Under the pieces are notes generated by a model. The model saw only the letters and a program-made list of their open reading frames with translations, was not told the origin of the DNA and made no database searches. Made by a program: the position numbers and the translations under genes. A stretch of 64,000 bases of DNA from Vicinamibacterales bacterium (GTDB lineage Bacteria; Acidobacteriota; Vicinamibacteria; Vicinamibacterales; UBA2999): positions 107,374 to 171,373 of the forward strand of contig JAWKHS010000005.1 in assembly GCA_041394705.1 (NCBI GenBank), in the 5' to 3' direction. This document shows, piece by piece, positions 14,227 to 32,693 of the stretch. How positions within the stretch are numbered: position 1 is the stretch's first letter; every line of letters starts with the position of its first letter.

Positions 14227-16562
14227 AGCCCGAGCGTTGCCACTTCGAGAATTACTGGGCAGCGAGCACTCGACTGCCGTCGTAGGAACCCGAGGTAATA
14301 TATGAAGCCGCTCATCATCTGGGGCGAGTAGCCAACCGTTTCCTCCCGCTGTGGTAGACACTCGTCGTAGCGCCATCGGTCGTGTCTACCTCTGGGCGGT
14401 GCCGGCGGCCGGAATAGGGACGTTGGCGTGGGCTGTCACTGACCTCCTAGCCCATTCCCCGTCCCCTTACTGGATCGCGCTGGCGACTCTGACCGCCCTT
14501 ACCGGCTCGTTCACGGTAAAAATTCCTGGCATGGTGGCTCGGCTGTCGGTTTCCGAGCCATTCGTCTTTGCGGCTGCCCTCCTGTTTGGCCCCGCCGCTG
14601 GCACTGCTACGGTAGCGATCGACGCGTGCGTCATGTCGCTTCGGCTAATGCCGAGCTTGCGGACGCCTCACCGTGTTCTGTTCAACGTCGGCACCCTGGT
14701 ACTGTCGGTCGCGAGCTCTTCGTGGGTATTCTTCATCCTTTCTGGCATTGACCCGCGGGCACCGGAATACCCTTCAGTCGACTCCTTTATCTGGCCGCTT
14801 TACGCCTTCAGCGCTTGCTGCTTCTTTGTGAACAGCGGGTTGGTTGCGCTGGCGTTAAGCGTCGAGCGCAAGAGCTCGCCCGTAACGATCTGGCGAGAGC
14901 AGTTCATGTGGCTTTCGGTGAACTACTTCGCCGGCGCTTCGGTGGCTGCGCTCATTGTCGTCTTCGCCCGAACTGTCGACGTCGCGATACTTGGAATCGT
15001 CATTCCGCTGATTGCCATTTCTTACCTAACATTCCGCACAACCCTGGGCCGTCTAGACGACGCAAACAAGCACCTTGGCGACTTGAATTCGCTATACCTG
15101 TCGACCATCGAAACGCTCGCGATGGCGATCGACGCCAAGGACCAAGTGACCCACAGTCACATCCGCAGGGTACAGCGATACGCCACCGGCCTAGCGCGCG
15201 CGCTGGGAATACAAAACGAAAAGCAAGTCAAAGCAATCGAAGCGGCAGCACTCCTGCACGACATGGGCAAGCTGGCAATCCCTGAGTTCATATTGAACAA
15301 ACCCGGCAAGCTCACTAGTCGGGAGTTCTCGGTGATGAAGACCCACGCAGCCGTCGGGGCTGACCTGTTGTCGTCTATCCGGTTTCCTTACCCCGTCGTG
15401 CCAATCGTGAGACACCATCACGAGAACTGGGATGGAAGTGGCTATCCGGACGGCCTCCGCGGTCCCGCAATTCCAATCGGAGCCAGGATCCTCGCCGTTG
15501 TCGACTGCTACGATGCTCTTACTTCTCATCGACCGTACAGGCCAGCGCTCTCGGCCAGTCAAGCCCTAGAGATTCTGACGCAGCGGCGCGGCAAGATGTA
15601 CGACCCACTGGTCGTCGATGCATTTGTTCGCGAGCATGCCTCACTGAGCACGCAGGCCGAGTTGCAGGACTTCCCAACCGTTCTGCTCGCGACTCAGGCG
15701 GACGCCACGCCTGAACCCATTGACGACAAACTTGAGCAGCAAGACACGCCAATCGAGTCGCTGCGCCTTCTGGCCAGCGTGTCGGCGTTTCCAGGAGGTC
15801 CTCCAACTCGAGTCGTGTGCCGGCAGCTTGTCGACAGCTTGCACGCACTCGTGCCGTTTGACACGGCGGCTGTGTTCGTCCTTAGCGAGGCTTCAAGCGA
15901 TGCCGAGGTGCTGTATGTCGATGGCTCCGCCGCGCATGTCCTCACCGGGCAGCGTATCCCGATAGCGGAGCGCCTCACTGGCTGGGTTGCTGCACACCGG
16001 ACGGCGGTGTGGAATTCGGACGCAAGGCTTGATCTTGGACCGATGAATGCGAGCACCACGCTTTCGCTCGGCTCCAGCCTGCCGCTCTACCAGAACGAGA
16101 CTCTCTTTGGCGTGCTCTCGCTTTACGGTCGCCCCGAGCACGAGATCACCGTTGGCCAGCGACGCGCGCTGGAGTCATTGCTTCCCATTCTATCGGCACA
16201 CATTGGCGATTCCCTGGCACGTCCTGGTACTGCGATTGACTGCACCGCACCGCAGCCTCGAGAGGCAGCTTTGTCTGCGCTTGAGTCGCTGCTTTCACAC
16301 AATCGCCGCAGCAGCTCTGAGGACGCGGTTGCAATCGTGGCCGTCGCGATGTCTGCGCTAGTTTCAGACGGTGCGCCGCAGAATTCACTAGAAGCAGCGA
16401 CCCGGACTCTTGCGGTTCGGCTTTCGCCAACCGTCGCATCAAAGCGATGTGTTCTAAAGATTGCCGATGGGCATCTGCTCTTGTGCGGACTGGATAGCGT
16501 GGACGCCACCGAACTTGAGCAAGAAGTATTGACGGCGGCGAAAGTCTCGGCCCTGCAGCCAT

Positions 16563-19466
<2,904 letters not shown>

Positions 19467-19530: not shown

Positions 19531-20544
19531 TCAGTTCGTGGCGGCCGTCAGCATGCCTTTCAGATGCTTCGCGATGTCCTCGTGCGTGGCGAACCAGACG
19601 CCGGGCTTGCTCTTCATGTGGCGGATGAGGCGGTCCAGCATCGCGACGCGCGAGCGGTGCCCCGTGTAGTGCGGATGCATCGTCAGGACGTAGAGGCCGC
19701 GCTCCTCCCAGGCCACGTCGAACTCCGACTGGAACACGGCCAGCACCTGCTCCGGCGACGGCATCGAGCCGTCGGCGGCGCCGAAATACGGCGCGTCGTC
19801 CACGATGCGCTCGATCGGGAGCTCGACCAGCCCCGTGGGCTTGCCATCGAGGTTCACCTCGTAGCCGTCGTCGCTGGCCATGAGGCTGCTGTCGTACAGG
19901 AAGCCCGCGTCCACGACCTGCTTCAGCGTGTACTTGCTGAACTTCCACGACGGCGCCCGATAGCCGACGGGCCGCTTGCCCATCGCCTTGGTCAACGTGT
20001 CGATGGACTGGGTCAGCAGCCGCAGTTCCTCCTGCTCGTCGTTCAGCACGGGCAGCCGCTCGTGGATCCAGCCGTGGATGCCGATCTCGTGCATGTTCCG
20101 CGACAGGATGTCCGGAATCATCTGCGGGTGCAGCAGCGAGCTCACGGCCGGGATGAAGAACGACGCCGGCACCTTGTGGGCGTCCAGCAGGCGCAGGATG
20201 CGCGGCAGCCCGTCCACCGCGCCGTACTCGCCGCGCGACAGCACCTCGTAGTCGAGGTTGCCCTGGGACAGCGCCATCGTGGCGTTGTCCACGTCGAATG
20301 AGAGCGCCACGGCGACCCGGTTGCCGCCGGGCCACGAGGCCGGCTTCAGGCGCCGTCCGGCGCCCACGTGGAACATCTCGGCCTTGAGGTCGTCGAGATT
20401 CTTGGTCACCCCCGGCAGGGGGTTCGCGCGCGGCGCGGCCGCACCGGCCGGCGCCTGAGCTCCGGCGTTCTGTTCTGCGCATCCGGCGGCCAGGCTCGCG
20501 ACCGCGACGACCGCGGCCACCGACATCAAGCGTGTGATCTTCAT
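19531..20544 (-). CDS. polysaccharide deacetylase (NodB/CE4-like) family lipoprotein
   Basis: 337-aa ORF. The signal peptide MKITRLMSVAAVVAVASLAAGC carries a lipobox. Deacetylase-family motifs are present: ALSFDVDN ... FFIPA ... HEIGIHGWIHE ... GYRAPSW. Its ATG overlaps the stop of the GMC gene (ATGA). Confidence 0.8.
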   Translation of the reverse strand: MKITRLMSVAAVVAVASLAAGCAEQNAGAQAPAGAAAPRANPLPGVTKNLDDLKAEMFHVGAGRRLKPASWPGGNRVAVALSFDVDNATMALSQGNLDYEVLSRGEYGAVDGLPRILRLLDAHKVPASFFIPAVSSLLHPQMIPDILSRNMHEIGIHGWIHERLPVLNDEQEELRLLTQSIDTLTKAMGKRPVGYRAPSWKFSKYTLKQVVDAGFLYDSSLMASDDGYEVNLDGKPTGLVELPIERIVDDAPYFGAADGSMPSPEQVLAVFQSEFDVAWEERGLYVLTMHPHYTGHRSRVAMLDRLIRHMKSKPGVWFATHEDIAKHLKGMLTAATN

Positions 20545-22160
20545 CCTCGTGCCTCCGAGCGGGCGCCGCCCAGCGCCTCCGCGATGTGATCGGCCGACCG
20601 CAGCGTGAGCGCCGCGAACGTCAGCGTCCCGTTGGTGCAGCCAGCCGTGGGGAGCGTGGGCGCCCCGACGACGAACAGGTTCTCGTGATCGTGCGTGCGT
20701 CCGTGGCCGTCGGTCACGCTGGCGGCCGGGTCCGTGCCCATGCGGCAGCCGCCGGCGGGATGATCCCAGTAGGTGCCGATGTCCAGGTCGTGCATGACGC
20801 CGTTGTGATTGGCGGCCAGCCGCGCGAACACACCGCGGATGTGCTCCACCGTGGCCGCACGCCGCGCCTCGGTGGCCGCGTCGGCCCTGTGCGCGACCTT
20901 CGGCATCGGGTCGCCGTACTGATTCTTGTGTGCCGGGTCGAGCGTGAGCTCGCTCGTGCGGTCGGGGTGCACGTCGTAGTACGCGCGCACGCGTGCCGTC
21001 GCCCGGCGGGTCCGGGACCGCCAGTCGGCCATCAGCGCGTCGCCGAGCATCACGCGTCCTTCGGCGTCACGCAGCCGCGGCTCGCGGAACACCGGGCTTT
21101 CCCACACCCGCAGGTCGTGCCGGACGAATGGCTTCGTGCGATCCGCCCGGAAGAACTGCCTGGAGATGAGGCTGTGCTGCGGGTTGATGCCGGGGTAGAC
21201 CTCGGCGTCCAGCTCGATCTGCGTCTGGACGAACGCGTGACCCGCCATGAACTTGCCGACGAGGCCCGACGAGTTGGCCAGGCCGTTCGGAAAGCGCCGG
21301 TCCGCGGAGAGGAGCAGCAGATGCGGGCTCCACGCATAGCCGGAGGCCAGCACGAACGTCTTCGCCCGGTACTCCACGGTTTCGCCGGGCCGATCGCGAT
21401 GGAGTCCCTGCGCCGCCGCGATCCTGGGTGTCGCCCCGCCGCCGTCGGCGGCCACCAGCTTCCTGACGAGGGTGCGATCGTGCAGGGTGATGGTCTTCGC
21501 CGCCAGCAGACGCTTGAACGTCGCGTCGGGCGCGTAGCGGGCCTCGGTGGGACACACCGCACACGTGTTGCAGCGCCGGCACTCGCCGCGGCCGTCGTAG
21601 GGCCGCGTGTTCTTGGCCTGCGGCGTGCCGCCGAACGGAATCCCGCTCTTGTCCGCCCATGCCTTCAACTGCAGCAGGTTCCACGAGAGCGGCATGCCGG
21701 GCATCGGATACGGCTCCGAACGGGCATCCTCGGGAAACGGACTCGGGTCTCCGGACACGCCGATGCGCCGCTCCGCCTCGCAGTAGAAGCGTTCCAGCTC
21801 CGTCCACGCGATCGGCCAGTCGGTGGCGAGGCCGAACATCGATCGGAGCCGGGTGTCCTCCTCCGAGAAGCGGTTGGTGACGCCGCCCCAGTGCATGGCC
21901 GATCCGCCGACGACCATGGACCGGGAGATCACGCCCTCGCCCGCCTGGTCCGGAATGTGGTCGCCCGGCCACGGCGCCTCGCCGTACTCGAGCACGCGGC
22001 GGCGCTGCTCCCATCGCCGCTGGGCGTCGAACATCCGGTCGCCCGCCTCCACCACGACGATCGACGTCCCGGGGCGGCGCTCGGACAGCTTCCAGGCCAG
22101 GAGCGCGGCGGAGATCCCGCCGCCGATCACGACGACGTCGGCCTCGTAGCGCGGCATCAT
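20541..22160 (-). CDS. GMC family FAD-dependent oxidoreductase (gluconate 2-dehydrogenase flavoprotein-subunit-like)
   Basis: Internal ATG at 22160 of the 1138-aa track ORF. The 539-aa product starts MMPRYEADVVVIGGGISAALLA (the GxGxxG FAD fold). Other motifs: GGSAMHWGG, CxxCxxC segment GECRRCNTCAVCP, and C-terminal HPAGGCRMG ... NLFVVGAPTLPT. The ATGA overlap with the small-subunit gene supports this start. Confidence 0.9.
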   Translation of the reverse strand: MMPRYEADVVVIGGGISAALLAWKLSERRPGTSIVVVEAGDRMFDAQRRWEQRRRVLEYGEAPWPGDHIPDQAGEGVISRSMVVGGSAMHWGGVTNRFSEEDTRLRSMFGLATDWPIAWTELERFYCEAERRIGVSGDPSPFPEDARSEPYPMPGMPLSWNLLQLKAWADKSGIPFGGTPQAKNTRPYDGRGECRRCNTCAVCPTEARYAPDATFKRLLAAKTITLHDRTLVRKLVAADGGGATPRIAAAQGLHRDRPGETVEYRAKTFVLASGYAWSPHLLLLSADRRFPNGLANSSGLVGKFMAGHAFVQTQIELDAEVYPGINPQHSLISRQFFRADRTKPFVRHDLRVWESPVFREPRLRDAEGRVMLGDALMADWRSRTRRATARVRAYYDVHPDRTSELTLDPAHKNQYGDPMPKVAHRADAATEARRAATVEHIRGVFARLAANHNGVMHDLDIGTYWDHPAGGCRMGTDPAASVTDGHGRTHDHENLFVVGAPTLPTAGCTNGTLTFAALTLRSADHIAEALGGARSEARG

Positions 22161-22735
22161 CGTCCCCCGGGGCCGAGCGCCGGCGGCCGGGCGTCCGAGC
22201 CCTGGAGCCCGCGGCACGCGTCGCGACCGATCGCGCGCGCATACGCGGCGTCGTTGGCGGCGGCGCCGCGGAAGTAGTGCGCCATCAGGTCCGTGGCGAT
22301 GTGACCGCCGTTCGGCCGAACGGGCAAATCGCGAATCCCGGCAGCGTCGATGGCCTCGACGACGACGCGGCGCCGGTCGGCATCGGCCAGTCCCAGGAAC
22401 GAGCCCCCGGCGCGTCGATCGAGGTCCGCCAGATGCCCGGCATAGCGGTCCGCCGGCGAGGCCGGCAGGGATCGCAACGCGGTGACGCCATACCCGGAGT
22501 CGCGCTCGGCGCCCGGCCGGTAGTCCCGCAGCCACTGGAGGAATCGCTCGACGGCCTGTTCCTGTCCCTGAGGCGTCAGCGTGGCCGGCAGCACGACCGC
22601 CGCGAGGGCGCGCACGGCGGGCAGGTGCGCGGGTCCGAAGGCGGCCTGCGCCGCAGCGGCGACCCGGCGGGGCCGCCCGACGGCCAGGCCCGCAAGGGCC
22701 GATTGCAGCAGTCTTCGCCGGGGCAGCATCGGCAT
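22157..22735 (-). CDS. gluconate 2-dehydrogenase subunit 3 (gamma-subunit-like) family protein with Tat signal
   Basis: The track ORF starts with TTG at 22783. I prefer the ATG at 22735, giving MPMLPRRRLLQSALAGLAV, a twin-arginine signal. ATGs at 22756 and 22729 are alternatives. The small size and its position directly upstream of the GMC subunit, with a 4-nt overlap, match the gamma subunit of membrane-bound sugar dehydrogenases. Confidence 0.65.
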   Translation of the reverse strand: MPMLPRRRLLQSALAGLAVGRPRRVAAAAQAAFGPAHLPAVRALAAVVLPATLTPQGQEQAVERFLQWLRDYRPGAERDSGYGVTALRSLPASPADRYAGHLADLDRRAGGSFLGLADADRRRVVVEAIDAAGIRDLPVRPNGGHIATDLMAHYFRGAAANDAAYARAIGRDACRGLQGSDARPPALGPGGR

Positions 22736-22907
22736 CTCGGTGAAACTCTGGTGCATCCTGAGCCAGCGCGCGATGCGAGTCAAGCGTACGGCGGCAAGCG
22801 CGGTGTCCCCCGGGCTGCGCGGGAGCCACGCGCGCCACGGCCGCCCGGCGAAGTCCTGCTACGATGGAACCTCGCCCCCCGCCAACACCAGAGAGGCTCC
22901 TCACACG

Positions 22908-23900
22908 ATGACCGCACTCACCCGTCTCGCGATCCGGTCCGTACTGCCGGCCACCGTCCTGGCCCTGTTTGGCGTCGCAGCGCCCGCGTCGGCGCAGACC
23001 ATCGGCACGTTCCCCTTCGCGCTCCAGCCATACTGCAACCAGGTCACCATCACGATCACGCAGGAAGGCAGCACCTACCGCCTGGCGGGGTGGGACGACG
23101 CCTGCGGGGCCGCAAAGCGGTACCCGTTGCATGGCACCATCGTTCCGAACCCTGACGGCACGCTCCACATCTCGTTTACCGTCACGCGCACGAACGGCAT
23201 TGCCGTCGAGACCAGCGTGCCCAACTTCAACGTCGGCACCTTGGGCGGCACCTGGACCGATAGCGCGGGGAACACTGGCCCCTTTCTGCTCGGAGGTGCG
23301 CCCGGCGGCAGCGGCGCCAGGCCCGGGCCCACGTCCACGATTCCCGCCAACTCCGTCACCACCGTGAACATCGTGGACGGGTCGGTGAACGCCGCCGACG
23401 TGAACGCCGCGCAGGTGCAGCTGCGGGTCAGCGGCTCGTGCGCGAGCGGCCAGGCCGTGCGTTCGGTGAACCAGGACGGCACGGTCGTGTGCGGCGCCGT
23501 CACCGGCCCGACGACCATGGGGAACGAGATCTCCGTACTGAACGGCATCACGAGCACCTGTGAAGAACTGGACGCGCTCTCGTTCGGCACGGTCCCGACG
23601 GGCACGCTGTCCTGCACAGCGGCGGTGAGTGCGAATTTCGGCCACACGAACGGCACCGTCGATCACCTGGAGTTCGACGTCGCGACCGTCACGAACGGCT
23701 GCAACGGCCTGAACCGGTCCGTCTTCGAGATGCCGGCCACCGCGGCCACGGAGGCCGGCATCGACGTGACCGTGCCCGTGCACCGCTGGCTCGGCACGGT
23801 CTCGGCCGGGCCGCTCACCGTCTACCTGAACGCGCGCACGCTCGGCACGACGGCGAACGTCCTCGCCTCGCAGTTCACCTGCACCTTCACGCCGCAGTAG
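22908..23900 (+). CDS. secreted hypothetical protein (Cys-containing, tail-fibre-like central motif)
   Basis: Internal ATG at 22908 of track ORF 22581..23900, with AGAGAGG upstream. The signal peptide is MTALTRLAIRSVLPATVLALFGVAAPASAQ. The central stretch IPANSVTTVNIVDGSVNAADVNAAQVQLRVSGSCASGQAVRSVNQDGTVVCG resembles a motif seen in tail-fibre-like and cell-surface proteins. No function can be assigned. Confidence 0.7.
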   Translation: MTALTRLAIRSVLPATVLALFGVAAPASAQTIGTFPFALQPYCNQVTITITQEGSTYRLAGWDDACGAAKRYPLHGTIVPNPDGTLHISFTVTRTNGIAVETSVPNFNVGTLGGTWTDSAGNTGPFLLGGAPGGSGARPGPTSTIPANSVTTVNIVDGSVNAADVNAAQVQLRVSGSCASGQAVRSVNQDGTVVCGAVTGPTTMGNEISVLNGITSTCEELDALSFGTVPTGTLSCTAAVSANFGHTNGTVDHLEFDVATVTNGCNGLNRSVFEMPATAATEAGIDVTVPVHRWLGTVSAGPLTVYLNARTLGTTANVLASQFTCTFTPQ

Positions 23901-23920
23901 CGGCGCCGTCGTCTGTCGCC

Positions 23921-23950
23921 GGGCCCGTCTCCGCGGCGCGGAGCGGGCCC
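23921..23950. terminator. strong GC hairpin between convergent genes
   Basis: GGGCCCGTCTCCGCG-G-CGCGGAGCGGGCCC forms a 14-bp stem with one bulged T. It sits in the 63-nt spacer between the secreted protein (+) and the Cys-cluster protein (-). There is no U-tract. Confidence 0.4.
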
Positions 23951-23963
23951 GCGCCATGTACGG

Positions 23964-25115
23964 TCAGGCGGGACCGGCCAGCGACGCCGCCAGCGACGCG
24001 CCATCGGCGTAGTGGAGCAGCAGGCGATCCGCCTCGCCGACGGCCGTCACGAGCGTCGTGCGGTCCAGACGCCGCCCCGCCTCCGCCGCCGCTCGCCCAC
24101 ACTCCACGCGTAGCACGGCCAGCGACAGGTCGAGCCACCCCACCAGCCCACGCGCGGCGTCAGCGTGGTAGGTCAGCCACGAGCCGAAGGCGCGCGCCGC
24201 CAGGTAGCGCCTGACGGTGACGGCGGCGTCTGCCCACGCCGGCTCCACCCACCGCGCGTCGGCATCCGCGAGATTCGGTGGAGCCGCCGGCCAGGTCCAC
24301 GGCGCCCGGCAGGCCGCCCTCGCCATCTCGAACAGCCGACCCCGGCGTGCGGCCGCGTCGGCGCCGCCCGGCGCGGACCGCAGCGGGCGCTCGGCCTCCC
24401 GCAGCCGGCCGACGGCCGCTTCGAGCGTGTCACCGGCGGGCCGCCAGGCGCGCAGGTCCTCGGCATCGGCCCGGAGGCGTTCGAGAATGTCCTCCGGCGC
24501 GCCCGTGTCCGCGGCAGGCCCGGCCAGCGCGCCAACGACGTGCGCCTCCCACGCCGACAACCCCTCGAGATCACACAACACGCGATCCGACAGACGCGGC
24601 GGCAGCGCGCCCCTGGCGTCCAGGCCTTCCGGCACGGGCACATCGGGCACGGCCGGCGGCCCCGGCACCAGGGTCACGGGCTCGTCGTAGTGGACCAGCA
24701 TCGCCGCCGCGGTCGGACACGCGTGCGACAGCGAGACCCGCACCCCCCGGTCGTCGACCAGGCAGACGCGCGGAAAGTGCTGGCACGTCGCCGGCAACGC
24801 CGCGTGGCCGAGGCTTGCGTGCACGGCACACCGGTGGCCGCCGCCAAGCGCCGGGACGTGGAACACGCACGCCCCATCCACGTGGCGAAACGTTCCCGCG
24901 ACGCCGTCCGGCGCCTCGGCCGACTCCTCGAGCCAGCGGGGCGACCCATCCACCGTCATCAACCGGCAGGCGATGACGGCGCGATCGATGCCCGCCACGA
25001 CGCCGTCGTCGACGGGCACGGGCCACCCCGCACGGCAACAGGCGCCGCTGTGCCGGCACGCGTACCCGGTGTGGCAGGAGAGCCACCACGTGGTGACAGT
25101 GGGCGGGATGCTCAC
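23964..25115 (-). CDS. YkgJ/FliB-family cysteine-cluster (putative Fe/Zn-binding) protein
   Basis: The GTG at 25115 overlaps the stop of the upstream cysteine-synthase-like gene (GTGA). The 383-aa product starts VSIPPTVTTWWLSCHTGYACRHSGACCRAGW. It also contains DGACVFH ... HRCAVHASLGHAALPATCQHFPRVC, the pattern of the CxxCxxCC/UPF0153 family. The N-terminal 321 codons of the 704-aa track ORF are an alternate-frame artefact. Confidence 0.6.
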   Translation of the reverse strand: MSIPPTVTTWWLSCHTGYACRHSGACCRAGWPVPVDDGVVAGIDRAVIACRLMTVDGSPRWLEESAEAPDGVAGTFRHVDGACVFHVPALGGGHRCAVHASLGHAALPATCQHFPRVCLVDDRGVRVSLSHACPTAAAMLVHYDEPVTLVPGPPAVPDVPVPEGLDARGALPPRLSDRVLCDLEGLSAWEAHVVGALAGPAADTGAPEDILERLRADAEDLRAWRPAGDTLEAAVGRLREAERPLRSAPGGADAAARRGRLFEMARAACRAPWTWPAAPPNLADADARWVEPAWADAAVTVRRYLAARAFGSWLTYHADAARGLVGWLDLSLAVLRVECGRAAAEAGRRLDRTTLVTAVGEADRLLLHYADGASLAASLAGPA

Positions 25116-26023
25116 GAACGGTAGAGGGCGCCGGCCAGGTATTTGAGTCCAGAGTCGCAGACCACCGTCACCACGCGCGCGCCGGGCGGCAGGCGCTTCG
25201 CGCGTTCCAGCGCCATCCACACGTTGGCGCCCGTCGAGGTGCCGCCCCAGATCCCTTCCTCGCGGGCCAGGCGCCGGGCCGTCTCCATCGCGTCGCGGTC
25301 CGTCACGGCGAGGACCGCCTCCGCCAGGGACGGATCGTAGTTGCCAGGAACGAACCCGGGCCCGGTGCCTTCGATCCGGTGCCCACCCGTGGGAGCATGG
25401 CCGGAGAGGGCGCGGCTCTCGGCGGGCTCGCCGGCGATGCACCGGACGCCGGGCACCTTGGCCTTGAGCGCCGCCGCATTGCCGGCGAAGCAGCCGGCCG
25501 TGCCCACCATCATCACGAACTCGTCGAGCCGGCCCCCGAGGGCGGCAAGCATCTCGTCGGCCATGGCGTGATACCCGGCCGGGTTGTCGGGGTTGTTGAA
25601 CTGGTCGGTCCAGAACGTGTTCGGCTCCGCCGCCAGCGTCCGGGCGCGGGCGATCATGGACTGAATCAGGCTCGCCGTGATCTTGCCGCCCTCGCTCGGG
25701 AGCACGTCGAGGCGGGCGCCGAACGCCCGCATCGTCTGCAGCTTCTCTTCCGAGAACGCGTCGGAGGACACGAAGTGCGCCTGATAGCCGAGGGCGGCGC
25801 ACACCATGGCGAGCGAGCTTCCCGTGCTGCCGCCCGTGTACTCGACCACGCGGCCGCCGGGCCGAAGCGCCCCGCGGGCCACGGCGCCCTGGATCATCGA
25901 GAGCGCCATCCGGTCCTTCATGCTGCCCGTGGGATTGGCGCCTTCCCACTTCACCCAGACCTCGACGCCATTGGCGGGTGCGAGCCGTTCCAGCTTGATG
26001 AGTGGTGTGCCGCCGATCTGCAT
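25112..26023 (-). CDS. PLP-dependent cysteine synthase family protein (CysK/CysM-like)
   Basis: 303-aa ORF. Motifs: GGTPLIKL, NPTGSMKDR (PLP lysine), GSTGSSLA, GTAGCFAG, and a GTSTGA-type C-terminal motif. TAAGAT lies 6 nt upstream of the ATG. Confidence 0.9.
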   Translation of the reverse strand: MQIGGTPLIKLERLAPANGVEVWVKWEGANPTGSMKDRMALSMIQGAVARGALRPGGRVVEYTGGSTGSSLAMVCAALGYQAHFVSSDAFSEEKLQTMRAFGARLDVLPSEGGKITASLIQSMIARARTLAAEPNTFWTDQFNNPDNPAGYHAMADEMLAALGGRLDEFVMMVGTAGCFAGNAAALKAKVPGVRCIAGEPAESRALSGHAPTGGHRIEGTGPGFVPGNYDPSLAEAVLAVTDRDAMETARRLAREEGIWGGTSTGANVWMALERAKRLPPGARVVTVVCDSGLKYLAGALYRS

Positions 26024-26111: not shown

Positions 26112-27572
26112 CTACCGCTCTTCAGACACCTCCGCGTCGGCCTCGATCTCCACCAGGTACTCGTCGCCGATCAACCGGGCCTGGACGAGGGTGTTGGCCG
26201 GACGGATTCTCCCGAACCGCTCACCGTGGGCGCGCGCCACGGCCTCCCAGTGCGCGACGTCCGACACGAAGATCCGCGTACGAACGACGTCCTCCAGGCG
26301 GCCGCCGAGCGACTGGAGCGCGCCGGCAATCTTGTCGATCGCCGCGTGGGTCTGCGCGGCCGCGTCGCGGCCGCCGAGCAGGCGATCGCCATGCGTGGCG
26401 GTGGTCCCCGACACGGCGATGCGCGATCCCGTCCGGACGGCGCGGGCGTAGCCGCAGGCCGGCTCCCACGGCGTGCCGCTGAAGCAGTGCCGCGTGCCGC
26501 GGGGTCCGGGGCGCACCTCGTACGGCGGCGGGAACGCGTCCAGGTGGTGACTCAGGTCGCCGGAAGCCGTCAGGAACGGCGGCACGCGGTACTCGTCGCC
26601 ACAGTCTCCAGGAATCGGCGCCAGGGTGGCGATGGCGGCCTCGAGGTGGGCGCGGTCTTCCGCCGTCAGGTGGAGATCGAACATGCGGACGTTCTCGTCG
26701 ACATGCGCCCGCTCACCCAGCCGCGCGCCCACGATCACGGCGGCCACCCCCGATTGATCGAGGATGTACCGGGTGGCGACGTTGGTGAGCGAGACGCCGT
26801 GCCGCTCCGCCACATCCTGGGCCGCGCGCAGGACGCGCTGCAGCGCCGGCCAGCCGCCGGCTTCGCGGATGAAGCGCCCGTACTTCATCTGCGACCACGT
26901 GCCCTCGCGCTCCCAGTCCGGTTCCGCCCGGCCGAGCCAGCGATCGCTCAGCCACCCGCCGCAGACGGTCCCGTACGCCAGCAGGTGCACGCCGAACTCG
27001 GCGCAGACGCCGGCCAGCGCACCCGCGGCCCGGCGATCCATGAGCGAGGCGCTCACCTGGTTCGACACCACCTCGATGCCCGTGGCCAGCGCCAGCCGGA
27101 GGTGCGCCGCATCCACGTTGGTCAGGCCGAGGTGACGGATCAGGCCCTCGCGCTTGAGATCCTGCAGATGGAACAGGGCGTCGAGCCACGCGGGGTCCGC
27201 GTAGTTCCAGGCGTGGAACTGCAGGAGATCGATCGCGGGCACGCGCAAGCGCTCGAGGGAGCGCTCCACGGCCGCGCGGACGTCCGCCGCGGTCACCGGT
27301 CCCGGCTTCGGCACCCACTTGGTGAAGAGCTGCAGCCGCGACGGGTCGCCCAGGGCGCGGCACGTGCCGGCGATCACTTCGGCCGATCCGTAGTGGTCGG
27401 CCATGTCGAACGCGGTGAGGCCAGCCGCCACGTAGGGCTCCATGGCGCGGGCGGCACGCACGGGATCGAGCGACGCGCCGTGCCGCTCCATGTCCGCCAC
27501 CTGCCACAAGCCGGTGACGACACGCGGAATCGGGAACCCGGGAGCGAGCGCGATGCTGGGGACAAACGCCAC
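26112..27572 (-). CDS. aldo/keto reductase fused to a C-terminal RidA (YjgF/TdcF/L-PSP) domain
   Basis: In-frame GTG at 27572, preceded by AGAGGAG 7 nt upstream. The AKR part carries FDMADHYG, IDLLQFHAW, HLGLTNV and AAVIVGARL. The last 125 aa or so (ARAVRTGSRIAVSGTTA...AAAQTHAAIDKIAGALQSLGGRLEDVVRTRIFVSD...PANTLVQARLIGDEYLVEIEADA) are RidA-like. Confidence 0.8.
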   Translation of the reverse strand: MAFVPSIALAPGFPIPRVVTGLWQVADMERHGASLDPVRAARAMEPYVAAGLTAFDMADHYGSAEVIAGTCRALGDPSRLQLFTKWVPKPGPVTAADVRAAVERSLERLRVPAIDLLQFHAWNYADPAWLDALFHLQDLKREGLIRHLGLTNVDAAHLRLALATGIEVVSNQVSASLMDRRAAGALAGVCAEFGVHLLAYGTVCGGWLSDRWLGRAEPDWEREGTWSQMKYGRFIREAGGWPALQRVLRAAQDVAERHGVSLTNVATRYILDQSGVAAVIVGARLGERAHVDENVRMFDLHLTAEDRAHLEAAIATLAPIPGDCGDEYRVPPFLTASGDLSHHLDAFPPPYEVRPGPRGTRHCFSGTPWEPACGYARAVRTGSRIAVSGTTATHGDRLLGGRDAAAQTHAAIDKIAGALQSLGGRLEDVVRTRIFVSDVAHWEAVARAHGERFGRIRPANTLVQARLIGDEYLVEIEADAEVSEER

Positions 27573-27588
27573 GGGCGAACTCCTCTGC

Positions 27589-29082
27589 CTACTCCGGCGG
27601 CAGCACGGCGAACCGCGCCGCCAGGTCGACGCCTCGCGCCGCGAGACGCCGCGTCTCACGCACGTACACCACCGAGCCGATGGCCATCACGATGGCCCAG
27701 ACCGGCGTCGATCGGAAGTACCACGCCGCGGCCGGCCCCGTCAGGTCCTTCCACGTGTGGACCCCCAGGAACACGGCGAGGACGACCACACCAGCGACGG
27801 CCACTGGCAGTTGCAGCGCGCGGGACGGCAGCACCGACACCCGGGCCGCGATGGCGGGACTGCGCCGCGGCAAGGTCACGACCGACACCGCCATGAACAG
27901 GAAGTTCACGAGCATCGACGTCACCAGGATGTCCACGCCGAGGAAGAAGTCCCCGGCCACGTGGCTGCCGATCACACCGAGCGTCGCCATGCCGGCGCTG
28001 GCGAGGATGGCGGCGTACGGCGTGCGGCGCGTGGGATGCACGGCGGCGATGACCGCCGGCACGATGCCGTCCTCGGCCCAGGCGAACATCAGCCGCGACA
28101 CGCCGAGGAGCATCGCCGGGAGATCCTTGATCAGGGCAACGGCGGCGCTGGACACGATCACGACGGACCAGAAGGGCGGCAGCACGTAGGCGAGGAGGCC
28201 GGGCGCCGTCAGGTCGCGGGTGCGCGAGAGGTCCGCGACGTAGGCCCACGGCACCGTGTGATAGACGGCGGCCGTGAACAGGAAATAGAAGATGGCCACC
28301 GAGCCCACGGCGATGAAGATCGCGAGGGGCAGGTCGCGGCCGGGGTGGCGGGCTTCCCCGCCGGCCTGGGCGATCGAATCGAACCCGATGAACGACGCGA
28401 AGAGCGTCGCCGCGGCGGGCAGGAGGACGCGGCCTCCGCCCATCGGCATCTCGGTCCGCCAGGTCTCCCCCTTCAGCGCGGCGGCCGCGAGGAAATCGCT
28501 CGGGTCGTGGCTGAACCCCGCCACGATCACGACGCCGCCGAGCGCGAAGGTCAGGAACATCAGCGGCACCATCAGGCGCTCGTACGCCTTGACGCCCCGC
28601 AGGTTCAGGCCGGCTGCCGCCCACAGGAAGCCCAGCGCCACCCCCACGCGCACGGCGCCGGACTCGAGCCACACCGCGACGCCCCTGGCGTCGAGCGCCA
28701 GCGCGATGTCACGCAGGAACGGCGCGATCAGGTAGGAGACGACGCCGATGGCGACCGAGAGCGAGAACCACTGCGAGAAGGACGCGATGAACCCGAGATA
28801 GGGCGAGAGCGCGCGGCTGGCGTAGACGTAGCTGCCGCCGGCGCGCGGCATCGCGGACGCCAGGATGGCGTAGGCCAGGCCGGCGAACACGGCCGGCACC
28901 GCGCCGAGGACGAAGGCGGGCAGCACCCACGATCCCACGCCCGGCACGTTGCGCTGGATCATGAAGGGGATCACGTTCAGCCCGGCGCCCACCATCGAGC
29001 AGACGCCGGTGGCGGTCAGGCCCAGCAGGCCCATCTCGCGGGCGAGGCTGGCGCCTGGCCGGGTGCCCCCCGGCGTCGTCAT
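27589..29082 (-). CDS. APC-superfamily amino acid permease
   Basis: Internal ATG at 29082 (MTTPGGTRPGASLAREMGLLGLTATGVCSMVGAGLNVIPF...). It overlaps the stop of the upstream oxidase gene (ATGA). The product is 497 aa with about 12 TM segments. Confidence 0.9.
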   Translation of the reverse strand: MTTPGGTRPGASLAREMGLLGLTATGVCSMVGAGLNVIPFMIQRNVPGVGSWVLPAFVLGAVPAVFAGLAYAILASAMPRAGGSYVYASRALSPYLGFIASFSQWFSLSVAIGVVSYLIAPFLRDIALALDARGVAVWLESGAVRVGVALGFLWAAAGLNLRGVKAYERLMVPLMFLTFALGGVVIVAGFSHDPSDFLAAAALKGETWRTEMPMGGGRVLLPAAATLFASFIGFDSIAQAGGEARHPGRDLPLAIFIAVGSVAIFYFLFTAAVYHTVPWAYVADLSRTRDLTAPGLLAYVLPPFWSVVIVSSAAVALIKDLPAMLLGVSRLMFAWAEDGIVPAVIAAVHPTRRTPYAAILASAGMATLGVIGSHVAGDFFLGVDILVTSMLVNFLFMAVSVVTLPRRSPAIAARVSVLPSRALQLPVAVAGVVVLAVFLGVHTWKDLTGPAAAWYFRSTPVWAIVMAIGSVVYVRETRRLAARGVDLAARFAVLPPE

Positions 29083-30290
29083 CGACGCGGCGAGGACGCG
29101 GGAGCCGCCGGCGCCCCGGGGGCACGCATGGACGCGAAGAGGGCCGCGTGCGTCTCCACGATGCGCGCCTTCTCGGCCTCGTTCACGTCCGTCGTCCAGA
29201 CGTCCCGCTCTGACGTGCCGCCCAGCACGATGCCATCGGTGCGCGGCATCATGTGGATGAAGAGTCCGCGCTGCGAGTTCGGGATGTTGACCCCGCCGTT
29301 GGTGCTGTAGTGCACCTCCGGCTGCGCCGGCAGCAGCACGAGCAGCCCCTTGAGCGGCATCAGCTCCTCGTCGCCGAAGAGAGCCTTGGCGCCGAGTCCG
29401 GTGCAGTTCACGACGAGGTTCTCGGAGAGCGCCATCACGTCGCGCGGCGACTCGAACCTGCGGATCACGAAGCGGCCGCCGAAGGCCAGCACGTCGTCCA
29501 TCAGGGCCGGCAGGTAGATGTTCGGCTCGATACGCAGTTCCGGCCGTTCGATGCAATAGGTGGTCGGGAACGGATGCTCACCGGGCTGGAGCAGCGTCTG
29601 CTCGCTCTGCAGGTGGCGCGGCAGGAGCGCGTTCTCCCCGCGCGCGGCCTCGGCGGAGTCGGTCGGGGAGTAGTTGGTGATCCACGAGATGCCGTAGCGG
29701 GTCCCGGCCATGAACTGCAGCTGGCGGTAGGCGATCTCGGCGGCCTGCACGAGCTGGGTGCTCCACTCGGGCGTCCGCTTCGCGAACTCGACGAGCCCCG
29801 AGGTGGGCGTCCAGGCCGCCAGCGAGAAGTTCGACGTCACGTCCGGCGGCACGCGCTCGGCGTAGACGGTCACGTCGAAGCCCCGCCGCTGCAGCTGCCT
29901 CGCCGTGGTGAGCCCGACCACGCCGGACCCCAGGACGGCGGCCCGGCGCTGGCCGTGCGCCAGCGCCATGTCGGCGGCCATCGTGGCCGTGCCCCAGGAG
30001 AGGGACATACCCGATCCGCCGTGTCCGTAGTTGTGGATCACGGTCTTCTGGTCGAGCCGCCCGTCCTTCAGCACGAAGCCTGACGGGCGGTGCGGCCGGA
30101 GCCCCACCGTCTGGCGGATGACGCGGTCCATCGACGCGCGCACGAGCGGCAGCTGCACCATCGGCCGCCGGGTCGCCGCCGGGGCCACGGGCGCCGTCCG
30201 CGCGGGCGCCTTCGATGCGCAGGCCGGCAGTCCCAGTCCGGCCAGCGCCAGGCCGGCGTTGCTCAACAGGGTGCGACGGTTCACGGGCAA
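29079..30290 (-). CDS. FAD-dependent oxidoreductase of the D-amino-acid-oxidase (DAO) family, Tat signal, circularly permuted segment order
   Basis: 403-aa ORF. The Tat-type signal is MPVNRRTLLSNAGLALAGLGLPAC. The DAAO C-terminal signature VGLRPHRP...VIHNYGHGGSGMSLSWG sits at residues 62-100. The dinucleotide-binding fold AAVLGSGVVGLTTARQLQRRGFDVTVYAE follows it at residues 117-145, which is the reverse of the canonical order. NLVVNCTGLGA and GIVLGGT come later. Confidence 0.85.
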   Translation of the reverse strand: MPVNRRTLLSNAGLALAGLGLPACASKAPARTAPVAPAATRRPMVQLPLVRASMDRVIRQTVGLRPHRPSGFVLKDGRLDQKTVIHNYGHGGSGMSLSWGTATMAADMALAHGQRRAAVLGSGVVGLTTARQLQRRGFDVTVYAERVPPDVTSNFSLAAWTPTSGLVEFAKRTPEWSTQLVQAAEIAYRQLQFMAGTRYGISWITNYSPTDSAEAARGENALLPRHLQSEQTLLQPGEHPFPTTYCIERPELRIEPNIYLPALMDDVLAFGGRFVIRRFESPRDVMALSENLVVNCTGLGAKALFGDEELMPLKGLLVLLPAQPEVHYSTNGGVNIPNSQRGLFIHMMPRTDGIVLGGTSERDVWTTDVNEAEKARIVETHAALFASMRAPGAPAAPASSPRR

Positions 30291-30299
30291 GTCCGCCGG

Positions 30300-31724
30300 T
30301 CAGCGGGCGTGCGCGACGTCGTGCACGACGTCGTAGTAGTAGCGCACGAACCGGTACAGCTCCGATTCGTTGATACGTTCCTGGTCGCTGTGGGCGCCGA
30401 ACCCCTTCGGGCCGTCCTCCACGTCGATGGCGGGCCCGACGCCGTAGCACTGCACGCCCTTCGCCCTCAGGTAGGCCATGTCGGTGGCGCCCGTGCTCAT
30501 CGTCGGCAGCGTCAGCACGTTGTAGTGCTTCTTCACGCCGGCCTCGATGGCCTCGAACATCTCTGTGTTCAGGCGCGAGACGCCGTTCGGACGGACGTCG
30601 CGGGCGCCGAAGGACACCTCCACCGAGGGGTCGTTGACCACCTTCTTGACCATCTCGAGGAAGGCCGCCGGATCCTGGTCGGGCATCATCCGCACGTCGA
30701 GCGTGGCCGAGACTTCCGACGGGATGACGTTGGTCCGGTAGCCGGCCTGGATCATGGTCGGTGAGATGGACGTCCGGATCGTGGAGGCGTGCCGGGGTTC
30801 GTTGTCGAGGAGGTACTCGTCGGCGGCGTCCTGGGCCTTCGGATCGCTGGCGTTCAGGATGGCGCGATAACGCTCGGCCGAGGCCGGATCGGAAATGGTC
30901 GCCAGGCGCTTGAAGTAGGCGGCGGTGGTCTCGTTGAAGCTGATGGGCGGCTTCCACTTGGCCACGGTCGAGACGGCCGTCGACAGCTTCACCACGGCGT
31001 TGCTCCTGAGCGGTACCGACCCGTGGCCTGCCGTGCCGCGCGCGGTGAGGGTGATTGCCCGCGGAATCTTCTCCAAGGTCTGGATGGACGCGAACGTCAC
31101 CTTCTCCTTCTCCCGGTTCAGGCTGCCGCCCTCGGCCAGGCAGTACTCGGCGTCGATCTTGGGGAAGCGCTCGGGCTCGGTCATGTGGGCGATGCCGTAG
31201 CGGACCGCACCTTCCTCGCCGGCCTCGAACAGGGCGATGACGTCGCGGTCGAGCTGCACGTTCTGGCGCTTGAGCAGCACCATCGCCATGATGGTGGCCG
31301 TCACGTTGTCCTTGTCGTCGACGGTCCCGCGGCCGTAGATATAGCCGTCGGCCCGGTCGGCGCTGAACGGCGGATGCGACCACTTCTTGGCGTCGATGTT
31401 CACCGTGTCGGTGTGGGCCATGAGGAGGAGCGGCCGCTTCCGGCCGGAACCCTTCAGGCGCGCCACGAGGTTCGGGCGATTGGCCTCAAGCGCAAACGTC
31501 TCGGTCGGGATGCCCTCCTGCTCGAGGACCCCCCGGATGTAGTCCACGACGGGCTTCTCGATGCCGGGCGGCGTCGTCGGCGGGTCCGTCGAGTCGATCC
31601 GGACGATGGACTGGAAGTGCTTCAGCGTCTCGGCATCGGCCGCCGTCCAGTCGATCGCGGGCCCTTGAGCCGAGGCGACAGCCACGGCTCCAGCCACGGA
31701 AAACAGGAGTGCCAGTCTACGCAT
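30300..31724 (-). CDS. exported M20/M25/M40 family metallopeptidase
   Basis: 474-aa ORF. The signal peptide is MRRLALLFSVAGAVAVASAQG. M20 motifs are present: LLLMAHTDTV, GRGTVDDKD, ALFEAGEE, and GATD in the C-terminal part. TGCTACCAT lies 7 nt upstream of the ATG. Confidence 0.9.
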   Translation of the reverse strand: MRRLALLFSVAGAVAVASAQGPAIDWTAADAETLKHFQSIVRIDSTDPPTTPPGIEKPVVDYIRGVLEQEGIPTETFALEANRPNLVARLKGSGRKRPLLLMAHTDTVNIDAKKWSHPPFSADRADGYIYGRGTVDDKDNVTATIMAMVLLKRQNVQLDRDVIALFEAGEEGAVRYGIAHMTEPERFPKIDAEYCLAEGGSLNREKEKVTFASIQTLEKIPRAITLTARGTAGHGSVPLRSNAVVKLSTAVSTVAKWKPPISFNETTAAYFKRLATISDPASAERYRAILNASDPKAQDAADEYLLDNEPRHASTIRTSISPTMIQAGYRTNVIPSEVSATLDVRMMPDQDPAAFLEMVKKVVNDPSVEVSFGARDVRPNGVSRLNTEMFEAIEAGVKKHYNVLTLPTMSTGATDMAYLRAKGVQCYGVGPAIDVEDGPKGFGAHSDQERINESELYRFVRYYYDVVHDVAHAR

Positions 31725-31872
31725 GCGCGGGATGGTAGCACGGGGGTTTGCCGTGCTCGCCCGGCCGAGCTCAGCGCCAAAATGCGTCGGTGGATCGACA
31801 AAATTGTCAGCTCAACCGCAAAATGACGCCGCGCCGACACCCGTACGCCGGGGTCTCGACGGGCCCCGCAGG

Positions 31873-31888
31873 TGGCAAACGCATTGCA
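31873..31888 (+). promoter_or_regulatory. sigma-54 (-24/-12) promoter candidate TGGCAA-N5-TTGCA
   Basis: TGGCAAACGCATTGCA has GG at 31874-75 and GC at 31886-87, so the spacing is GG-N10-GC. It is a near-consensus match, 17-23 nt upstream of the ATGs at 31905 and 31911 of the PilZ gene. It overlaps the GTG at 31872 used by the ORF track, which argues against that start. Confidence 0.6.
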
Positions 31889-31904
31889 AACTCGTCAGCC
31901 CGTC

Positions 31905-32693
31905 ATGTCCATGTCGCCCCGTGTCGGAATAGCGTGCCCTCGGCCCACTGAGCGCGCCGCCATTTCCGAGTGGTTGAGTGCAGCCGGCTTCGAGCCGCTC
32001 GTTCTGGTCGATGCCTGCTTCGTGACCACCGAAATTTCGGGGCCCCCGCCCGTTCTGGTTGTCGCCGACGCCAAACTGCTGTCGGCCCAGTTCATCAACG
32101 CCCTGCGCAAAGGCGATCCCAACCGTCCAATCCTGGCCATCGGCGATGCCGGGGACCCGAACGAGCCGGCCCTGACCCGGAAGGGCGTGGCGTTCCACGT
32201 CCGCCCGTTGGACGAGCAGGCGCTGGTGCTCGCCGTCTCGCTGGCGCAGGCCGAGAACCGGCATGCCCGCCGGTCCGCGCGACGCACGCTCCCCCGGCTG
32301 GCGTCTTCGATCGAAGGGGCGCCCGCGGTCCTGCTCGACGTCAGCAACGAAGGCCTCCGGCTGGAGATGGATTCCAAGGGTGGCGTCAAACTCCTGCCGC
32401 AGTTCCTGGTGCACGTGCCCATCCTGAAGATGGCCGTGCCGGTCCAGCGCGTGTGGGTGCGGTCGGCGGCGACCGACGCCGGGCGCCGCGTACAGTGCGG
32501 GGCCTCCCTGCTGGCTCCGGACGAGCGGACGCAGCGGATCTGGCAGCGCCTGGCGATGCCCGGCACGCGCATCGTCACCGAGCAGCCCGCGCGCGTCGGC
32601 GCCGAGGGCCTCTTCGGCCGCGTCTCGAACCTGATCGCTCAGGCGCCCATCGTCGGCTCGCTGGCCCACCTGCCCTGGCGCGGCCGTTCGTAG
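31905..32693 (+). CDS. PilZ domain protein with N-terminal receiver-like (degenerate REC) domain
   Basis: PilZ c-di-GMP motifs are present: RRSAR (RxxxR) followed by LLDVSNEGLRLE (DxSxxG). The N-terminal 120 aa have a CheY-like alternation (PPVLVVADAKLL ... PILAIGD) but lack the N-terminal acidic pair. The start is ATG 31905 or 31911. The track start GTG 31872 is unlikely. Confidence 0.75.
   Translation: MSMSPRVGIACPRPTERAAISEWLSAAGFEPLVLVDACFVTTEISGPPPVLVVADAKLLSAQFINALRKGDPNRPILAIGDAGDPNEPALTRKGVAFHVRPLDEQALVLAVSLAQAENRHARRSARRTLPRLASSIEGAPAVLLDVSNEGLRLEMDSKGGVKLLPQFLVHVPILKMAVPVQRVWVRSAATDAGRRVQCGASLLAPDERTQRIWQRLAMPGTRIVTEQPARVGAEGLFGRVSNLIAQAPIVGSLAHLPWRGRS

Follow-up and report, generated by a model that had tools for sequence, protein, structure and literature searches.

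We analyzed a window of 64,000 nt from the genome of a soil bacterium of the Vicinamibacterales (Acidobacteriota; contig JAWKHS010000005.1, positions 107,374 to 171,373; all coordinates below are those of the window), in which a compact run of minus-strand genes encodes an exported peptidase, a circularly permuted flavoprotein, an amino acid permease and a fusion of an aldo-keto reductase (AKR) with a Rid domain. An earlier note on this DNA had read these four genes as one operon serving a single route from the envelope to the cytoplasm. The run begins with the gene for an M20 metallopeptidase (30300..31724, 474 aa), followed by those for a permuted flavoprotein of the D-amino-acid oxidase/D-aspartate oxidase (DAAO/DDO) family (29079..30290, 401 aa from the likely true start, GTG 30284), an APC-superfamily amino acid permease (27589..29082, 497 aa) and the AKR-Rid fusion (26112..27572, with a GTG start). 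Open reading frames (ORFs) and Pfam matches bear out the strand, coordinates and domain identities given earlier for these four. The same-strand run extends beyond the fusion gene by two more genes, giving a six-gene cluster: a CysK/CysM-like fold-type II pyridoxal phosphate (PLP) enzyme (25112..26023, minus strand, 303 aa) and a Cys-rich hypothetical protein with a weakly FliB-like N-terminus (23964..25115, minus strand, 383 aa). The cluster is bounded upstream by a divergent conserved hypothetical gene without a Pfam match (31872..32693, plus strand, 273 aa) and downstream by a convergent gene for a secreted protein (22908..23900, plus strand, 330 aa; G+C at third codon positions, GC3, 0.90). 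None of the cluster products passes an NCBIfam equivalog cutoff.

The genes are tightly packed. The junction between the peptidase and oxidase genes reads TGA-CCGGCGGAC-TTG, a 9-nt gap by the annotated TTG start. Since homologues begin with MNRR or MDRR and an identical NCBI protein has 401 aa, translation probably begins at GTG 30284, which would lie 15 nt behind the peptidase stop and be preceded by an SD-like (Shine-Dalgarno) GGCGGA. The stop codon of the oxidase gene and the start codon of the permease gene share the sequence ATGA (-4 nt), and the permease and fusion genes are joined as TAG-GCAGAGGAGTTCGCCC-GTG, a 16-nt gap with the SD sequence AGAGGAG at 27586..27580. The gaps of -4 and 16 nt reported earlier are thus read directly from the sequence, while the first, reported as 9 nt, probably has to be corrected. 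A gap of 88 nt separates the fusion gene from the PLP enzyme gene, whose stop is overlapped by the GTG start of the last gene as GTGA, indicating translational coupling. The G+C content of the window is about 72% and the GC3 of all six genes lies between 0.88 and 0.95, without any sign of recent horizontal transfer of single genes, an explanation that we rejected on this ground. A terminator scan of the minus strand found no terminator-like site at any gene junction and none that was convincing after the fusion gene or after the last gene. The one minus-strand match (28311..28295) falls within the coding region of the permease, and three matches in all are not in excess of the 1.6 expected from shuffled sequence. 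Scanned over its full length for tRNA genes and Rfam families, the window yielded none, and hence no riboswitch or leader RNA.

An extended -10-like element, TGCTACCAT (P1; 31732..31740, minus strand), lies 7 nt before the ATG of the peptidase gene and is predicted to act as a leaderless-type promoter. The block GTG[C/T]TAC[C/G]ATCC(G)CGC..ATG is kept in six relatives (loci L001, L002, L006, L007, L089 and L090) whose intergenic DNA is otherwise divergent, in agreement with the leaderless-type promoter proposed earlier for the first gene. A second promoter-like element qualifies the single-promoter picture: the -10-like hexamer TAAGAT (P2; 26030..26035, minus strand), in the gap between the fusion and PLP enzyme genes and 6 nt before the ATG of the latter, is likewise predicted to be of the leaderless type. 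Among the relatives it is found as TAAGAT in L006 and as TAGGAT in L001, with SD-type coupling instead in L002, L007 and L089. A TANNNT hexamer (TATAAT, TACAAT, TAAGAT, TATAGT and others) precedes by 5-8 nt the start of about 15 coding-type, high-GC3 ORFs of the window (for example those starting at 5732(-), 8373(-), 26023(-), 31724(-), 33877(+), 50057(-), 50221(+) and 53457(+)), and leaderless mRNAs would thus seem to be frequent in this genome. On the plus strand, a promoter-like TCGACA-18-CAAAAT (31795..31824) would serve the divergent gene at 31872..32693, and its -35 hexamer is the conserved TGTCGA block of the intergenic alignment. This divergent gene accompanies the cluster in all close relatives; it could encode a regulator.

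Common strand, short or overlapping junctions, a conserved -10 and the lack of terminator-like sites at the junctions are the features of an operon, and transcription most likely starts leaderless at the peptidase ATG and continues at least to the end of the AKR-Rid gene; both the leaderless start and co-transcription are inferred from the sequence. The four-gene operon of the earlier note thus holds as regards tight coupling. It does not hold as a unit of four, since the cluster runs on to the PLP enzyme and Cys-rich protein genes, the first of which has its own P2.

The product of the second gene matches Pfam DAO (PF01266) with an E-value of 1.1e-31, in two stretches. Its alignments with PDB sequences, those of human D-aspartate oxidase and of many DAAOs, fall into two swapped stretches: residues 55-108 align to DAAO/DDO residues 273-333, with the motifs GxRPxR and HNYGHGGxG, and residues 115-384 to residues 2-270. 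The signature segment (55-108) precedes the GxGxxG motif (121-126), so that the canonical chain order of DAAO is not kept. When residues 47-112 were moved in silico behind residue 390, the de-permuted protein aligned in one colinear stretch to human DDO 14-333 (E 9e-25, vs. 5e-23 in native order) and to human DAAO 2-328 (E 4e-20 vs. 6e-18). The permuted order of motifs is found in all of 119 close homologues; among the 150 best 50%-identity representatives of the family, the set used for motif order and for signals (106 with both motifs, 82 full-length), it is found in 104 of the 106 that carry both motifs. An AlphaFold2 (AF2) model of the protein, built with 32 diverse homologues (predicted local distance difference test, pLDDT, 89.1; predicted template modelling score, pTM, 0.85), replaced an earlier run with 15 close sequences (pLDDT 70). 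In a Foldseek search of the PDB with this model, the top 33 matches are all DAAO/DDO, and the next fold class follows at E-values five orders of magnitude higher. That the oxidase is a circular permutant, as the earlier note had pointed out, is thereby firmly confirmed.

In 32 family sequences, reaching down to 32% identity, R65, the HNYGHGG signature with G92, the GxGxxG glycines (G121/G123/G126), the NCTG motif and Arg350 are invariant. R65 aligns to R283 of human DAAO, the ligand of the substrate α-carboxylate, and G92 to its G313; the DAAO signature VIHNYGHGGSGMSLSWGTA and the segment GLRPHRP are both present and invariant in the family. Because the Arg that binds the α-carboxylate is kept, the enzyme would be expected to deaminate D-amino acids. 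The positions of Tyr224 and Tyr228 of human DAAO are taken by F344 and H346 in a phmmer alignment that is of low confidence in this loop. A specificity for D-aspartate is unsupported, with Ser360 at the position of Arg237 of human DDO. A route by way of an amadoriase, in which a fructosyl-amino-acid oxidase would supply glucosone to the AKR, was rejected since no amadoriase is among the sequence matches of the oxidase; the MSOX-type proteins are only far weaker structural matches, and the carboxylate-binding Arg and signature of the DAAO type are present.

It may also be that the permuted flavoprotein does not oxidise D-amino acids at all and acts on another periplasmic amine or hydroxy acid (glycine, sarcosine, an opine or a peptidoglycan fragment such as the D-centre of meso-diaminopimelate), or that it is a dehydrogenase feeding a periplasmic carrier rather than O2, as periplasmic redox enzymes often do. 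No NCBIfam model reaches its cutoff, the best being ThiO (52 bits, cutoff 251); the apparent His at the Tyr228 equivalent in the subgroup of this oxidase and the additional invariant Arg350 would also be compatible with a different substrate, and GxRPxR and YGHGGxG occur in some glycine oxidases as well (PMC9844085). However, the best sequence matches and all of the leading structural matches are DAAO/DDO, neither the carboxylate-binding Arg nor the DAAO signature varies in the family, and no electron-carrier gene is a conserved neighbour of the oxidase. We regard this explanation as unlikely, though one to be kept in view.

The N-terminus of the oxidase carries the twin-arginine motif NRRTLL, then the hydrophobic stretch SNAGLALAGLGL and a lipobox-like LPAC (Cys24), and thus has the make-up of a twin-arginine translocation (Tat) signal; the passenger behind it is a flavin adenine dinucleotide (FAD)-type protein, and residues 1-40 are unstructured in the AF2 model. 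The RR pair is at least 90% conserved across the family (32 sequences), and its variants RRxFL and RRxLL fit the Tat consensus. Among the 82 full-length representatives, 68 have the RR pair and 44 a lipobox-like Cys. The Pro at -2 in LPAC24 is atypical for a lipobox ([LVI][ASTVI][GAS]C), and the Cys is invariant in 15 close homologues. The family comprises at least 340 clusters at 50% identity (E <1e-30) and is present in at least 595 species genomes (GTDB), ranging over Acidobacteriota, Gemmatimonadota, Gamma- and Alphaproteobacteria and Eremiobacterota. It includes cultured members in Xanthomonas citri, X. euvesicatoria, X. perforans and Sphingobium (P0213, P0511-P0538; 404-407 aa); the Xanthomonas homologues have an AxA-type signal rather than a lipobox, and WP_218499138.1 is an example of the X. 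citri/X. euvesicatoria orthologue. Annotation of the cultured homologues does not go beyond "FAD-dependent oxidoreductase" or, automatically, "D-amino-acid oxidase", and a limited literature search found nothing relevant on permuted, Tat-targeted or periplasmic DAAOs. The oxidase family is therefore large and apparently undescribed. A second permuted paralogue, about 51% identical, was found at an unrelated locus (L036, 10001-11158) of the metagenome-assembled genome (MAG) that also contains L006 (isolate CA_2019_TPBS_142), the closest sequenced relative; genomes can thus hold several members of the family.

The M20 metallopeptidase encoded by the first gene has a typical Sec-type signal peptide (MRRLALLFSVAGAVAVASA|QG; with its start, MRR-LALLFSVAGAVAVASA|QG), and the export signals assigned earlier to the peptidase and (Tat) to the oxidase are both recovered. 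Pfam matches to Peptidase_M20 (PF01546, 1.4e-29) and M20_dimer (PF07687, 3e-12) are accompanied by the M20 metal and catalytic motifs HTD104, GTVDDKD133 (D136-type), GEEG169, LAEGG196 and GAHSD443. All NCBIfam models score below cutoff, the best being PRK09133 (301 bits, cutoff 349), and the relatives in the PDB are distant ones only.

The five partner genes were sought within 10 kb of the oxidase at 85 loci. At oxidase identities of 72% or more (L001, L002, L006 and L007, and also L089-L092) the whole six-gene cluster is present together with conserved flanks, namely the divergent hypothetical gene, a fatty-acid desaturase, a HisKA histidine kinase and a pair of GMC oxidoreductases; these loci, all from close Vicinamibacterales relatives, are the only ones in which the cluster was seen. 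At 62-69% identity only the M20 gene is nearby, divergent or convergent, with an S9 peptidase between the two in one lineage, and at 38-60% (about 75 loci) the surrounding 10 kb contain no partner gene at all. Neither tblastn nor unbiased ORF clustering found a conserved neighbour of the oxidase in the 85 loci. The recurrences are weak: MacB/FtsX permeases at 11 loci, an S9 peptidase at 7 (3 of them near-duplicates) and a PQQ-type (pyrroloquinoline quinone) dehydrogenase at 7. Synteny in relatives, to which the earlier note had pointed as a check on its proposal, does not speak for it, in that the four genes occur together only in the range of at least 72% oxidase identity, where the flanks are syntenic too.

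The permease (Pfam AA_permease_2, 4e-34; TIGR00909 174 bits, below cutoff) has multiple hydrophobic segments. Its partner has an aldo-keto reductase domain over about residues 1-340 (Aldo_ket_red, PF00248, 9e-53) and a Rid domain over about 356-486, with a match to Ribonuc_L-PSP (PF01042, 2.5e-21) at residues 371-482. D56, Y61, K85 and H120 are invariant in the fusion homologues and presumably form the AKR tetrad, judging by their canonical context (DxxxxY, K, H). All of the 120 best matches to the fusion, 69-92% identical, carry both domains. The fusion was also observed in at least 571 metagenome loci, at 55-70% identity across very different environments. In the survey of permease and fusion genes (L086-L088 and L093-L171), the permease lies immediately upstream of the fusion gene, on the same strand, in 46 of the 57 metagenome loci with enough upstream DNA, and on three distant contigs it precedes the fusion gene at a gap of 5 nt, with no other gene of the cluster. 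M20, oxidase, PLP enzyme or Cys-rich protein genes were found near the fusion gene in only 1 of 80 metagenome loci, and that one is from the same clade. Unbiased clustering of neighbours in 86 loci returned the permease in 64 and nothing else in more than 10, and hence no third gene conserved with the two. Permease and AKR-Rid fusion are an autonomous, strongly conserved two-gene module that is found in many phyla. A limited literature search found nothing relevant on AKR-RidA fusions.

The Rid domain lacks the residue on which imine hydrolysis depends. Asn460 (irPANtlV) occupies the position of RidA Arg105, where PH0854, RutC and YabJ have PAR; it is invariant in 12 AKR-Rid fusion homologues, and the closest PDB entry is Rv2704 of M. 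tuberculosis (3i7t). Niehaus et al. found the Arg to be essential for imine hydrolysis by RidA (Arg105 of S. enterica RidA), judged the Arg-less subfamilies to be most likely not imine hydrolases, with Rid7 inactive on oxidase-generated imines, and called the functions of Arg-less Rid proteins completely unknown in their 2015 survey of the family (PMC4433059). The Rid domain of the fusion protein would accordingly be expected to have a role other than imine hydrolysis. The fusion protein has no signal peptide and is predicted to be cytoplasmic.

These results bear directly on the single route proposed in the earlier note, by which the M20 enzyme would cleave peptides outside the cytoplasm, the oxidase would act on a D-amino acid or similar amine, the permease would import the product or the amino acid left over, and the RidA and AKR domains would detoxify imines or 2-oxo compounds. 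In its favour, the four genes are coupled behind one conserved promoter in an arrangement kept in all close relatives, and elsewhere RidA and Rid3 genes cluster with those of FAD-dependent amine oxidases, and RidA and Rid2 hydrolyse imines made by oxidases (PMC4433059). The postulated link from the oxidase to RidA nevertheless fails, as the essential Arg is replaced by an invariant Asn and the two proteins are assigned to different compartments by the Tat signal of the one and the absence of a signal in the other, a point on which the earlier note had itself placed a caveat. It is the permease, not the oxidase, that accompanies the fusion (46/57 vs. 1/80), the oxidase is without all these partners in about 75 of 85 loci, and permeases of the APC superfamily carry amino acids or amines, not 2-oxo acids. 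The cluster is a mosaic, the single route is unsupported and highly improbable, and it should not be propagated at the level of the operon.

The PLP enzyme matches Pfam PALP (3e-70) and, among proteins of the PDB, best the O-acetylserine sulfhydrylase of T. thermophilus (E 8e-65). It falls below the NCBIfam cutoffs for cysK, cysM and cysKM (TIGR01136, 276 bits vs. 344; TIGR01139, 261 vs. 351), and SMKDR is kept while the Asn loop reads TGGSTG rather than TSGNTG. In every close relative the gene lies downstream of the AKR-Rid gene, at distances from 4 nt upwards. The Cys-rich protein has no Pfam match and reaches 44 bits with NCBIfam Lys_methyl_FliB (cutoff 85); its FliB-like N-terminus contains the Cys motif C-x6-C-x5-CC. 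Only 266 homologues were detected, all named ones from Vicinamibacterales, and in both contexts examined (L090 and L091) they lie in the same cluster. The NCBI model of this protein (351 aa) starts after the Cys motif, and the homologues support the longer form of 383 aa. In L089 a VapB/VapC (PIN) pair (8517-9101) sits between the AKR-Rid and PLP enzyme genes of an otherwise identical cluster, showing this junction to tolerate insertions; VapBC is probably also present in a gap of about 650 nt in L007 (about 14170-14816).

A chance arrangement, inherited vertically in one Vicinamibacterales lineage and without a common physiological theme, would account for several of these features: the clade is narrow, the flanks (fatty-acid desaturase, HisKA kinase, divergent hypothetical gene and GMC pair) are syntenic as well, each module occurs separately elsewhere, and a toxin-antitoxin pair is tolerated inside the cluster. 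Yet relatives with as little as 72% protein identity still have the 4-nt overlaps and gaps of 5-20 nt across the boundaries of the modules, the promoter is conserved too, and a role in handling amino acids or peptides is plausible for five of the six products. An operon of mere convenience therefore seems rather improbable to us.

On balance we favour, with moderate confidence, a tightly packed promoter-proximal cluster made of three evolutionarily separable modules, not one dedicated pathway, which would share a theme of amino acid and peptide scavenging. Module A consists of the Sec-exported M20 metallopeptidase and the Tat-exported, probably lipid-anchored flavoenzyme of permuted DAAO/DDO type, in which the C-terminal GxRPxR...HNYGHGGxG segment has moved ahead of the GxGxxG start of the Rossmann fold. 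Module B, permease and cytoplasmic AKR-Rid fusion, would be a self-contained pair for uptake and reduction, and module C, the divergent CysK-like PLP enzyme with the coupled FliB-like Cys-rich protein, is lineage-specific. The three would have been joined behind one conserved leaderless-type promoter in a single Vicinamibacterales lineage, with P2 as a putative extra promoter for the PLP enzyme gene. In the periplasm the M20 enzyme may trim peptides and the oxidase may deaminate free D-amino acids to 2-oxo acid, ammonium and H2O2, whereby nitrogen and carbon would be scavenged outside the cytoplasm; as far as can be told from sequence, periplasmic deamination of D-amino acids beside exported peptidases is the most likely role of the oxidase. 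The permease would import an amino-acid-like compound, the carbonyl-bearing form of which could be reduced by the AKR domain. What the modules have in common would then be scavenging, and not the channelling of a metabolite from the oxidase to the Rid domain. The operon itself is an ordinary lineage-specific arrangement.

Several observations weigh against this explanation. The position equivalent to Tyr228 appears to be His in the subgroup to which the oxidase belongs and Tyr in most of the wider family (YMxPR), and the additional invariant Arg350 has no counterpart in DAAO. The ATGA overlap of oxidase and permease genes is kept in all close relatives, and such kept overlaps leave room for a functional link between modules A and B that would be invisible to comparative data. 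Within module A, the proximity of the M20 and oxidase genes could be residual vertical synteny, as the flanks are also kept in the same relatives.

Tentatively, and as a possibility short of a probable conclusion, the permuted Tat-targeted proteins may represent an unrecognised broad class of periplasmic, often lipid-anchored D-amino-acid oxidases, which would include the first natural circular permutant of the DAAO fold. D-amino acids, among them those freed from peptidoglycan peptides by neighbouring exported M20 and S9 peptidases, would in that case be deaminated outside the cytoplasm, a common means of scavenging nitrogen and carbon in soil Acidobacteriota, Gemmatimonadota, Xanthomonas and Sphingomonads. 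DAAO is a textbook flavoenzyme with industrial uses (production of 7-aminocephalosporanic acid, biosensors) and medical relevance. If the permuted proteins are active, the taxonomic range of bacterial DAAOs would widen, the oxidation of D-amino acids would prove to be periplasmic as well, and a natural permutant would become available to protein engineering. In soil, where Vicinamibacterales are abundant, the D-amino acids of peptidoglycan form a sizeable nitrogen pool, and an extracytoplasmic route for D-amino acids would be relevant to models of nitrogen turnover there. Cultured, genetically tractable bacteria (X. citri, X. euvesicatoria and Sphingobium) carry homologues, which makes the oxidase family directly testable. 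The module of permease and Asn-bearing AKR-Rid fusion, for its part, bears on the question of what Arg-less Rid proteins do.

Some features of the surroundings were also recorded. A 1138-aa minus-strand ORF (20541..23957) was rejected as a member of the cluster, being a high-GC artefact with a non-coding-like profile over 22908..23900; its 3' part encodes a GMC-family oxidoreductase (about 20541-22190) and its 5' part overlies the plus-strand gene at 22908..23900. The 330-aa protein encoded by the latter has no Pfam match; the 96%-identical relative L006 has this gene as well, and L001 lacks it. The G+C content falls to 60-63%, vs. about 72%, at 14000-18000 of the window, where an HD-GYP-type/GAF protein (14351..16675) and a sigma-54 activator (within the ORF 16563..19466) are encoded; an S8 subtilase gene (12541..14226) adjoins this stretch.

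Among known enzymes the oxidase most resembles DAAO and DDO (EC 1.4.3.3 and 1.4.3.1; PF01266), with which it shares the two-domain flavoprotein fold, GxGxxG, NCTG, the Arg of GxRPxR and the [IV]HNYGHGGxG signature; human DAAO (2du8), human DDO (6rkf) and the DAAOs of Rubrobacter and Rasamsonia are among its best matches in sequence and structure. It differs in that some 60 residues from the C-terminal end of DAAO stand at the head of its chain, in an identity to the solved DAAOs of 21-25%, and in the apparent His at the Tyr228 equivalent and the extra Arg350. The family also has a Tat signal, often with a lipobox-like Cys, and is predicted to be extracytoplasmic, in contrast to the cytosolic or peroxisomal DAAOs. 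GxRPxR and YGHGGxG have been named as conserved marks of bacterial DAAOs in a 2022 survey that counted about ten bacterial DAAO genes in a single phylum, printed as "Acinetobacteria" and read here as Actinobacteria (PMC9844085). The permuted family lies outside that phylum.

The AKR-Rid protein is like the Rid-family imine deaminases (PMC4433059) in its Rid fold and in having genes for a FAD amine-oxidase-type enzyme and a PLP enzyme nearby. In contrast to RidA it has Asn in place of the catalytic Arg, as do the Arg-less proteins Rv2704 (3i7t) and PA3499 (2ig8), and it differs from the RidA systems in being fused to an AKR and in having a permease, not an oxidase or PLP enzyme, as its conserved partner. 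The PLP enzyme shares the fold of type II and the lysine motif SxKDR with CysK and CysM, from which it is set apart by the TGGSTG loop (TSGNTG in those enzymes), by scores below the NCBIfam cutoffs and by its coupling to a lineage-specific FliB-like Cys-rich protein. A parallel in function may be the periplasmic L-amino-acid oxidase LAO1 of Chlamydomonas, which reportedly serves extracytoplasmic scavenging of nitrogen. The proposed likeness would consist in deamination outside the cytoplasm, uptake of ammonium and keto acid, and H2O2 that is kept outside; the two enzymes differ in protein family and in stereospecificity.

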